A stretch of DNA of 64,000 bases. Origin: a bacterium (GTDB lineage: Bacteria; Patescibacteriota; Saccharimonadia; CAILAD01; GCA-016700035). The position numbers and the translations under genes are program-made. Positions 22,359 to 23,532 of the stretch are shown piece by piece. Within the stretch, counting starts at the first letter, position 1, and each line of letters begins with the position of its first letter. The DNA lies in NCBI GenBank assembly GCA_016700035.1, contig CP064998.1, forward strand, positions 662,699 through 726,698, in the 5' to 3' direction. The notes under the pieces were generated by a model. That model ran no database searches. It worked only from the letters and a program-made list of their open reading frames with translations, and had not been told where the DNA came from.

Positions 22359-22940
22359 CTAGGCAGTCTCGGCACGCTTCTGCTGGTTCAGTTGACTCAC
22401 CTTGTATCCAGATATATTTAGGATCTCAGCAGTTTCAGAGAGCGTGAATCCCTCTTCGAGAAGCTCAGCTACAAGTCCTTGTCGCCTTTCATTAACAACA
22501 CTCATCCGCGCATAGAATTCATCACGGCGCCCCCAGCCGCGCTGTTCAGCCCATATGCTTGGTACAAAGTAGGGCTCTTCTCGGCGAGGTCCCGCCAGAT
22601 GCTGGTATCCAAGTAAGGATGCAACGAACTTGAGGAGCAATATCAACACCACCCTCTCATCTACCGTTAGCTTAAGTTGTTTGAGCGTTGACTCAATATA
22701 GCTAAGCTGGACTTCTAGGTAGTCGATGAACTGCTGACTAGCATTCAGAGCAAGAACATCCTTACGGAATTTTCTCAGTAGCTTTCGACACTCTTTTCGG
22801 AAGAGAATTGGATCATTGAATTCAGATGCAGTGCCGTAGTACTTCTTCTCGCCAAAGACTTGGCGAAACAGGTTCTCTGCTAGCATCGGTAGCGAACTGG
22901 CCGCTAAAGGAATCGGCTCTTCTTTCATGTATGTATTCAA
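22359..22940 (-). CDS. hypothetical protein with C-terminal sigma70-region-4/LuxR-like HTH
   Basis: C-terminal FTLSETAEILNISGYKVSQL. Confidence 0.45.
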   Translation of the reverse strand: MNTYMKEEPIPLAASSLPMLAENLFRQVFGEKKYYGTASEFNDPILFRKECRKLLRKFRKDVLALNASQQFIDYLEVQLSYIESTLKQLKLTVDERVVLILLLKFVASLLGYQHLAGPRREEPYFVPSIWAEQRGWGRRDEFYARMSVVNERRQGLVAELLEEGFTLSETAEILNISGYKVSQLNQQKRAETA

Positions 22941-23087
22941 TTATAGCCTATAGCCCCAAAACCTTGACAATGCATGTAAGAACTGCGAAGACGAAAATAG
23001 ACCCTTGCAAAGGGCCTACATACTGAATACTATCTGTCCCACAGCTTCTGAAAGATGCCAGAAGTCGGGTTTCTATTGGTGTCTTAC

Positions 23088-23164
23088 TGGTGGAGCTAGG
23101 GAGACTCGAACTCCCGACCTCTTGCATGCCATGCAAGCGCTCTAGCCAACTGAGCTATAGCCCC
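23088..23164 (-). tRNA. tRNA-Ala (anticodon GGC), CCA encoded
   Basis: minus strand GGGGCUAUAGCUCAGUUGG...AUGGCAU anticodon loop...GGUCGGGAGUUCGAGUCUCCCUAGCUCCACCA; G3:U70 alanine identity pair. Confidence 0.9.
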
Positions 23165-23394
23165 AAGATAATCACGCACCCCTATCATAACATCAATGTT
23201 CTAACGTACTGTTTTGGCTAGAGCGCTTGGGCTTTAAGGCACGACTAGCATCGTGACAGCCAACTTGAGCTATAGCCCCAAGATAATCACGCACCCCTAT
23301 CATAACATCAATGTTCTAACGTACTGTTTTGGCTAGAGCGCTTGGGCTTTAAGGCACGACTAGCATCGTGACAGCCAACTTGAGCTATAGCCCC
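23165..23394. repeat. two tandem 115-bp units immediately 5' of tRNA-Ala, each ending with a copy of the tRNA's first 22 nt
   Basis: ccccaagataatcacgcacccc recurs at 23161, 23276 and 23391. Each unit carries a TTGATG-17-GATTAT promoter-like box and an inverted 16-nt D-arm fragment. Confidence 0.85.
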
Positions 23395-23532
23395 AAAGAT
23401 TAAATGATTATGATCCTCCCCAAATAAGGAGCCTGAGGCACCTCCATAGAACTGCTCTATTTTGTCAAACTTAACTATAAATATCAACTAATAAGTGCCC
23501 CGCCCCTCTAAAGAGAGATGAGGCACAAGTTA

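Follow-up and report, generated by a model that had tools for sequence, protein, structure and literature searches.

A tRNA-Ala(GGC) gene of Candidatus Saccharibacteria with a probable two-layer structural variant in its 5′ leader

How did the tRNA-Ala(GGC) gene in a 64,000-nt stretch of a Candidatus Saccharibacteria (TM7) genome (hereafter the window, to whose full length all coordinates refer) come to be preceded by identical tandem repeats that contain copies of its own 5′ end? We consider it likely that the locus holds a structural variant built in two layers in the tRNA 5′ leader, consisting of an older cassette and a recent head-to-tail duplication of that cassette. The duplication is probably an ordinary event rather than a new system and, as a recent event, provides a small and clean example of how, in a strongly reduced genome, changes in copy number can start from a partial copy of a tRNA gene. 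The main interest of the locus lies in the recurrence of the cassette across Saccharibacteria.

Anatomy and copy number of the 115-bp repeat

The window encodes a single tRNA, tRNA-Ala(GGC), which was identified by ARAGORN and scores 67.1 bits with the Rfam tRNA model RF00005 (gathering score 29). On its 5′ side, Tandem Repeats Finder (TRF) reports a tandem repeat with a period of 115 (23144-23396; 2.2 copies, 99% matches, score 499), and a gap-free repeat search finds positions 23151-23265 and 23266-23380 to be 100% identical, in agreement with the 115-bp tandem units described at this place in the initial annotation. Each 115-bp unit consists of a 22-nt pseudo-5′ end, here termed A, and a 93-nt spacer, termed B, and on the minus strand the ancestral promoter region is followed by A1-B1-A2-B2 and the tRNA gene (Table 1). 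The sequence of A comprises tRNA positions 1-21 with one inserted A and is found exactly twice, with 0 occurrences expected in shuffled sequences. The units had been read as each ending in a 22-nt tRNA copy with an extra A; two such exact pseudo-5′ ends do exist, but the second unit ends at the start of the tRNA gene proper, where the additional A is missing. Furthermore, B contains a small hairpin, a perfect inverted copy of tRNA positions 16-31 and the promoter-like sequence TTGATG-17-GATTAT. The inverted 16-nt D-arm fragments, present in each unit as first noted, are 100% complementary to the part of the tRNA gene at 23134-23149 of the window, and the copy in B2 lies 64 nt from the tRNA arm. 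The additional 12-nt copy of the tRNA 5′ end (TTGGGGCTATAG) that had been noticed beyond the tRNA is likewise present and also occurs in the independent contig L005; the expectation for an exact 12-mer is ~0.008 per window, and as a 16-mer with three mismatches the site is not above chance.

Repeat number differs among related genomes, as the initial annotation had thought worth examining. The close relative L200 (95.9% nucleotide identity over 2.6 kb) carries one A-B unit, with an A identical to that of the window. One unit each is also found in eleven contigs of a sister lineage with 90-92% nucleotide identity (L004 and L190-L199), in which the layout is promoter, diverged A (GGGGCTGTGGCTGAAGTTGGCT), B and tRNA. 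The ten contigs L190-L199 were obtained from JGI, ENA and Logan, and the sister lineage includes a 701-kb JGI contig. Because L200 and the sister lineage carry one unit, the A-B-tRNA arrangement is ancestral and the second unit is new, and because both units are 100% identical, the duplication is recent. Two contigs recovered from other samples (L001 and L002) match the window at 100% identity and terminate at the same place, ...GGCTGTCACG. When k=31 unitigs were simulated, the break in genomes with two or three units fell on precisely the end base of these contigs (window position 23367), while a one-unit genome is traversed unbroken. The duplication is thus present in independent data and is no assembly artefact, and the difference in copy number reflects genuine variation between strains. 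A repeat that was expanded or mis-joined in assembly, which had been named at the outset as the possible refutation and for which the difficulty of counting 115-bp tandem repeats from short reads speaks, is extremely improbable, as two independent short-read unitigs break at a junction specific to genomes with at least two units, the one-unit form assembles straight through in relatives, and the source contig (916 kb, carrying the window protein NCBI QQS26749.1) is long.

Two successive steps would account for this arrangement. In the older one, a 115-bp cassette would have come to lie between the ancestral promoter and the tRNA, where it is common to relatives down to ~90% nucleotide identity; this cassette comprises a displaced, non-functional copy of the first ~22 nt of the tRNA (A) and a spacer with a hairpin, an inverted D-arm copy and a promoter-like block (B). 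In the recent, strain- or species-specific step, the cassette was doubled head-to-tail, so that two or more units now precede the tRNA (A-B-A-B-tRNA). This second step would most simply have come about by unequal crossing-over or replication slippage between direct repeats of 22-26 bp that were made by the first, and the one-unit state already holds such repeats 115 bp apart (TT + A versus TT + tRNA start). As the inserted A cuts the perfect match between A and the tRNA to 14 + 7 nt, the last unit would be harder to lose than full units would be to gain or lose. Replication slippage (or unequal crossing-over), one of the sources suggested in the initial annotation, is supported for the 115-bp duplication by the identical units, the one-unit close relatives and the pre-existing 22-nt direct repeat. 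The integrase target-site footprint suggested alongside it does not apply to the recent duplication, and is possible only for the older A-B-tRNA layer.

These features are shared with products of slipped misalignment or unequal sister-strand exchange, in which units are likewise identical, bounded by direct repeats and different in copy number between close relatives, and inverted copies such as the 16-nt one are typical of what template switching makes (PMC8794818). The nearest described architecture is that of Escherichia coli tyrT-tyrV (rttR/tpr), where head-to-tail units also lie beside a tRNA and each end in ~20 nt of that tRNA's end, so that in both loci tRNA-derived direct repeats supply the homology for unequal crossing-over. 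The E. coli tyrT/tyrV repeat was checked and has a period of 178 bp with 3.1 copies and 95% matches, its units ending in ...ATCCTTCCCCCACCACCA, which are the 3′ 19 nt of tRNA-Tyr. Contrastingly, the tyrT-tyrV repeats are located downstream and derive from the 3′ end, whereas those of the present locus are located upstream and combine the 5′ end with a promoter-like block. The E. coli repeats are also older (95% identity) and coincide in part with an annotated small RNA and with a gene for a small protein, whereas the present units are 100% identical and contain no conserved open reading frame (ORF). Judged from its sequence, the array is a much younger mirror image of tyrT/tyrV. No direct precedent for an upstream tandem repeat of a tRNA 5′ fragment was found in the literature. 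The array is a variant of known event types and probably not a new system.

Table 1. Coordinates of the features at the tRNA-Ala(GGC) locus of the window
Feature	Coordinates	Strand	Evidence or remark
tRNA-Ala(GGC), functional gene, 77 nt, CCA encoded	23088..23164	-	ARAGORN; RF00005, 67.1 bits; identical tRNA in many Saccharibacteria loci
Spacer B2, proximal, 93 nt, directly 5′ of the true tRNA	23165..23257	-	100% identity with B1
Pseudo-5′ end A2, GGGGCTATAGCTCAAGTTGGCT	23258..23279	-	exact match, 0 by chance
Spacer B1, distal, 93 nt	23280..23372	-	repeat searches
Pseudo-5′ end A1, distal end of the array	23373..23394	-	exact match; homologous copy here in L200, L190-L199 and L004
Promoter-like block of B2, AGAACATTGATGTTATGATAGGGGTGCGTGATT	23170..23202	-	0/33 variable columns in five related sequences
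Promoter-like block of B1, identical to that of B2	23285..23317	-	second unit identical
Inverted copy of tRNA positions 16-31 (D-loop, D-stem, 5′ anticodon stem) in B2; minus strand CAAGCGCTCTAGCCAA	23214..23229	.	16/16 complementary
Inverted D-arm copy in B1	23329..23344	.	inverted-repeat search
Small hairpin CACGA-TGCTAG-TCGTG, 2 nt past the pseudo-5′ end, in B2 / B1	23240..23255 / 23355-23370	-	RNA fold
Ancestral tRNA-Ala promoter TTGATA-17-(TG)CAAAAT, upstream of the entire array (predicted)	23459..23487	-	consensus scan and relatives
Invariant 22-nt block just 5′ of A1, with CATAAT at 23412-23407, 13 nt before A1	23395..23416	-	0 variable columns in five-sequence alignment
Terminator-like hairpin and T-run closing the tRNA transcription unit	22997..23019	-	tail TTTTCGTCTTCGCAGTT common to L190
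Fourth short copy TTGGGGCTATAG, 130 nt 3′ of the tRNA, just before ORF 22359-22940	22949..22960	-	species-specific segment

Sequence constraint and promoters in the leader

Constraint on the leader was assessed in an alignment of the window (reduced to one unit) with L200, L190, L191 and L004. The upstream terminator and ancestral promoter are nearly invariant (2/103 variable columns), and the stretch before A1 contains eight variable columns among 54, with the last 22 nt being invariant. Three of the 22 columns of A vary. Within B, variable columns number 6/27 in the first part, 1/19 in the inverted D-arm block and 3/9 in the next stretch, and none of the 33 columns of the block AGAACATTGATGTTATGATAGGGGTGCGTGATT is variable. 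Pooled neighbouring non-coding columns are variable at 20 of 88 positions (~23%), giving a probability of ~2e-4 for 0/33, and sequence constraint on the promoter-like block is evident.

In B2, this block holds TTGATG (23196-23191), the extended -10 element TGtTATGAT (23192-23184) and the start of GATTAT (23173-23168). TTGATG-17-GATTAT, which agrees with the promoter consensus at 8/12 positions, had been described as a promoter-like box before each copy of the tRNA 5′ end. It does occur once in each B (23196-23168 and 23311-23283), preceding A2 and the true tRNA, but no such box precedes A1. Its proposed function fits less well than its presence, since its -10 element ends only 3 nt before the tRNA start, compared with 10-37 nt for the -10 element of the tRNA-Ala promoter in 15 relatives. 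The overlapping extended -10 element TGtTATGAT, at 19 nt, lies within this range and would fit better than GATTAT. The conserved block of B may well function as a working proximal promoter. The duplication would then add a second promoter copy whose transcripts carry a 115-nt leader, with longer leaders arising by read-through, and if the promoter of B works, the net effect of the duplication on the tRNA would be small or neutral. In addition, the ancestral promoter TTGATA-17-CAAAAT appears to be still present upstream of the array. Relatives without the cassette (L007-L011, L182 and L183) have a 'CAAAAT-a[ag]agcagttct' motif directly 5′ of the tRNA, as in the ancestral promoter of the window.

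Recurrence and candidate origins of the cassette

The order of an RsmC-like 16S rRNA methyltransferase gene followed by tRNA-Ala(GGC) is conserved in ~40 species-level Saccharibacteria genomes. The 300 nt upstream of tRNA-Ala were scanned for pseudo-5′ ends in 42 loci, with the best match per locus being reported, and significant matches were obtained only in the window (-230), L004 (-116), L050 (-119), L051 (-116) and L054 (-117); the second copy of the window at -115 is known from the repeat and exact-match searches and not from this best-per-locus scan. A degenerate copy is located at -117 in L052, and L038 contains an 80-nt insert that begins with a degenerate copy. In a methyltransferase tree, the cassette loci fall into two clades, each of which has cassette-free sister taxa. 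Beyond the close relatives of the window, the pseudo-5′ end is thereby seen in two further groups of loci, L050 with L038 and L051 with L052 and L054. Comparison of L052 with L040 and of L038 with L031 places the pseudo-5′ end at the native distance of 13-14 nt from the native -10 element, with the working tRNA 80-119 nt further. The copy ends in the D-loop (positions 20-22) in all seven loci, and the clade-I copies have a 1-nt insertion in common.

The inverted D-arm copy is retained at 16/16 positions in L200 and L190-L199 and at 15/16 in L004. Spacers are otherwise unalignable between the clades, although the distant L050 shares an 11-nt inverted D-arm fragment (11/11 positions), for which the expectation is ~1e-3 in a random 97-nt spacer. 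A hairpin of different sequence occupies the equivalent place in L051, L052 and L054. Metagenome contigs were also scanned with GGGGCTRTRGCTNNAGTTGG, a pattern ill-suited to the purpose, which gave 83 matches that lie mostly within coding sequence, none of them adjoining tRNA-Ala. The patchy distribution of the cassette would require either that the cassette arose long ago and was then lost precisely many times, as direct repeats would readily allow, or that a site-specific process has recurred.

Several points weigh against the two-layer reading in its present form. In a consensus promoter scan, the promoter-like block of B falls below the threshold, and the case for a promoter role of B is made by its conservation and its consensus-like motif, from which such a role would be deduced. 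Short-read graphs set only a lower bound of at least two on the copy number, as three units give the same unitig break as two. A simple 115-bp tandem duplication as the source of the older layer is not supported, with no significant homology between B and the DNA upstream of A1, and B showed no detectable homology with the remaining part of the tRNA and its trailer either. Furthermore, recurrence at ~116-119 nt gives a hint that a site-specific process or selection for some function may be involved beyond neutral duplication, and general mutational mechanisms do not explain a pseudo-5′ end that recurs at ~116-119 nt in distant lineages. The cassette may have originated as the scar of a 5′-targeting element, by template switching or by an old duplication.

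Concerning the first of these origins, the A-B-tRNA arrangement could be a scar left by a phage or another element with site-specific integration, which targeted the 5′ part of tRNA-Ala with a crossover in the D-loop and brought its own promoter and 5′ end to restore the gene. A would then be the displaced host 5′ end beside the host promoter, B the remnant of the element after internal deletion, and the 115-bp duplication a secondary event. A precedent for 5′-end integration is provided by HTVC019P-type pelagiphages, which insert at the 5′ ends of tRNA genes and bring a partial 5′ tRNA with them (bioRxiv 10.1101/410191), and tRNA fragments left by the integration of elements are common (PMC9897764). 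The present locus resembles such cases in having a displaced partial copy beside an intact gene, with the boundary in a stem-loop of the tRNA. The native distance between pseudo-5′ end and native -10 element in L052 and L038, the termination of 7/7 copies in the D-loop, a symmetric stem-loop of the type used by tyrosine integrases, the conserved promoter-like block in B that a 5′-targeting element would need, the lack of relationship between B and the tRNA body or upstream DNA, and the patchy distribution in the tree are all consistent with this origin. However, neighbouring ORFs tested gave no integrase, no phage-like gene and no PHROG family match, and none of ~55 Saccharibacteria loci has a larger element between the pseudo-5′ end and the tRNA. 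The motifs of B have 0 matches in IMG/VR and GenBank phages, where an attP counterpart (tRNA 5′ fragment with a B-like arm) was not found either, and the viral matches to the 20-mer of the tRNA 5′ end are all complete tRNAs. Independent decay to a common remnant of ~93-97 nt in three clades is improbable unless the ancestry is shared. The present locus also differs from scars of integrating elements in that its copies are only 93 nt apart and tandemly amplified, and from the pelagiphage case, in which the element supplies the tRNA 5′ part, in that no element, integrase or attP counterpart was found. With any element absent, assignment of the locus to the class of attachment-site scars fails, and we regard an element as the origin of the cassette as possible but unlikely.

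The recurrence itself could also be read as a sign that the cassette is a recurrent functional feature of Saccharibacteria. It would then be either the footprint of undescribed small elements that integrate in the D-loop, or a selected leader in which a decoy 5′ end and an anti-D-arm control tRNA maturation, with copy number as a dial. The constant spacing of ~116-119 nt in three clades, the invariant blocks within a fast-evolving spacer and the inverted D-arm copy kept in clade I lie behind this proposal, which we consider rather improbable. If either an integration footprint or a working leader were confirmed, tRNA-gene targeting would be extended to the 5′ end and D-loop in Patescibacteria. 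A new control of a single-copy tRNA could in addition be represented. Present evidence reaches neither conclusion.

A more specific version of the leader hypothesis holds that the cassette acts as a functional leader RNA, in which read-through transcripts would allow base pairing of the downstream tRNA with both A and the inverted D-arm copy, so that its folding and maturation are gated, or in which a tRNA-derived small RNA is produced; the duplication would then alter regulation. In the predicted minimum-free-energy fold of A-B-tRNA (-74.1 kcal/mol, z = -2.6), A takes the place of the genuine 5′ strand in the acceptor stem by pairing with its 3′ strand, while the inverted copy forms 19 bp with the 5′ half of the tRNA, and this misfold is favoured over the separate-tRNA fold by 8-11 kcal/mol in the window and L200. 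The low variability of the inverted D-arm block (1/19 columns), the 11-nt version of the copy in L050, where B is otherwise unalignable, and the overlap of the analogous E. coli tyrT repeats with the annotated small RNA rttR also argue for such a role. However, the advantage of the misfold shrinks to 0.8 kcal/mol in L190, although the 16-nt copy is perfect there, and is 0.7-4.6 kcal/mol in clade-II cassettes, compared with up to 6.8 kcal/mol in cassette-free control leaders. The unit alone folds no better than shuffled sequences (z = -0.09), the mismatch in the inverted copy of L004 is uncompensated, clade-II cassettes lack a clear inverted copy, and no Rfam family matches the cassette. Moreover, template-switch mutation can produce inverted copies without selection (PMC8794818). 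Comparison of the duplex energy of B and the tRNA with that of shuffled sequences was uninformative. A conserved RNA switch is not supported by these folding models, and we regard a functional leader RNA as improbable. A conserved small protein encoded across A-B was considered as well and rejected, as the reading frame differs between the window and L004.

Alternatively, two complete tRNA-Ala genes could once have stood in tandem, with A-B as what is left of the upstream one after decay; a 77-nt gene and a ~38-nt spacer add up to 115 nt, and gene conversion would have kept the 5′ end similar. In all lineages the period of 115-119 nt equals one tRNA with a short spacer, the upstream copy stands at the native promoter distance, and the insert of L038 contains, by eye, an acceptor-like long-range helix and an anticodon-arm-like GCTTTGCATGCAT. 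Contrary to this expectation, A-B gives no match to RF00005 even at E<=10, and comparisons of B with tRNA positions 23-77 and the trailer are not significant in seven loci (p = 0.13-0.94). Gene conversion is not evident, since A is not better conserved than its neighbours in the close clade (3/22 variable columns). We therefore consider a decayed gene pair quite improbable.

Two further candidates were rejected in this region. A permuted (two-piece) tmRNA at 22949-23115 (minus strand), composed of the T-arm and acceptor of the tRNA and the downstream GGGGCUAUA, scores 21.1 bits against a gathering score of 47 (E = 0.03). An invertible promoter between the 16-nt inverted repeats was discarded by reasoning, as its inversion would cut the tRNA in two and a segment of 64 nt is very short.

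Several observations were made at other Saccharibacteria tRNA-Ala loci. In L180 (69% methyltransferase protein identity), the tRNA-Ala promoter is broken within its spacer after 'gatatc' by unrelated sequence (last 120 nt), and the promoter region of tRNA-Ala seems prone to rearrangement on the basis of such sequence comparisons. The promoter and tRNA-Ala are reversed relative to the methyltransferase gene in L014 (4839-4915), L071 (5247-5323) and at the end of L033, indicating local inversion. L032 contains two copies of the tRNA-Ala 3′ end (5048-5064, CCCGATATGCTCCACCA, and a shorter one at 5173-5183), located 219 and 344 nt downstream of the gene, which by their position and sequence have the appearance of a classical 3′-type attachment-site scar. 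In L020 (~4780-4880), a contig labelled Flavobacteriales that is otherwise Saccharibacteria-like, tRNA-Ala is degraded, with its first 6 nt gone and its T-arm damaged, and may be a pseudogene or the product of a low-quality assembly. Metagenome contigs often end in or beside tRNA-Ala(GGC) (L012, L016, L031, L036, L037 and L050; L004 and L192-L199; L005 and L006). As many co-occurring Saccharibacteria have this tRNA with 100% identity, it behaves as a repeat during assembly. In practical terms, short-read assemblies break at the tRNA-Ala locus and copy numbers read from them are uncertain.

Gene neighbourhood and other features of the window

Homologues of the window's small methyltransferase are named Candidatus Saccharibacteria, which identifies the host. 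Besides the methyltransferase, the neighbouring genes encode Obg, D-Ala-D-Ala ligase (Ddl), a Mur ligase, LeuRS, a LysM-CHAP protein, YceG, RuvX and unknown proteins. A conserved, basic and cysteine-rich protein of 111 amino acids (CAECG...FCNKDCW) is encoded between the methyltransferase and the tRNA (23533-23868, minus strand). Relatives in clade I also encode this protein, which matches neither Pfam nor PHROG and is often missed by gene callers; no exact-protein record was found for this upstream gene or for the small ORFs that span the repeat. Homology with the 90-92% identical sister lineage ends just past the terminator tail of the tRNA, and because it stops there, the 3′ side of the tRNA represents a variable region. 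This side (21967-22940, minus strand) encodes a 193-amino-acid ORF with a weak match to sigma-70 region 4 and a 112-amino-acid ORF, which among the loci compared are found only in the species of the window.

The window also encodes a standard one-piece tmRNA (9507-9880, minus strand; 108 bits), with a predicted tag ATSSAVLPIGNPVSQA that ends in SQA, whereas LAA or VAA would be usual. The stretch 9900-12400, which adjoins the tmRNA gene on its 5′ side, has a GC content of 0.52-0.56, compared with ~0.46 otherwise, and contains few long ORFs. Within this stretch, a match to the hammerhead type III ribozyme was identified at 11509-11564 (minus strand), which scores 40.9 bits (gathering score 48.5; E = 1e-6 for the 3.7 kb searched). 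On visual inspection, this match has intact CUGAUGA and GAAA core boxes as well as a GUC cleavage triplet. The GC-rich stretch that bears this match may be a foreign insert.

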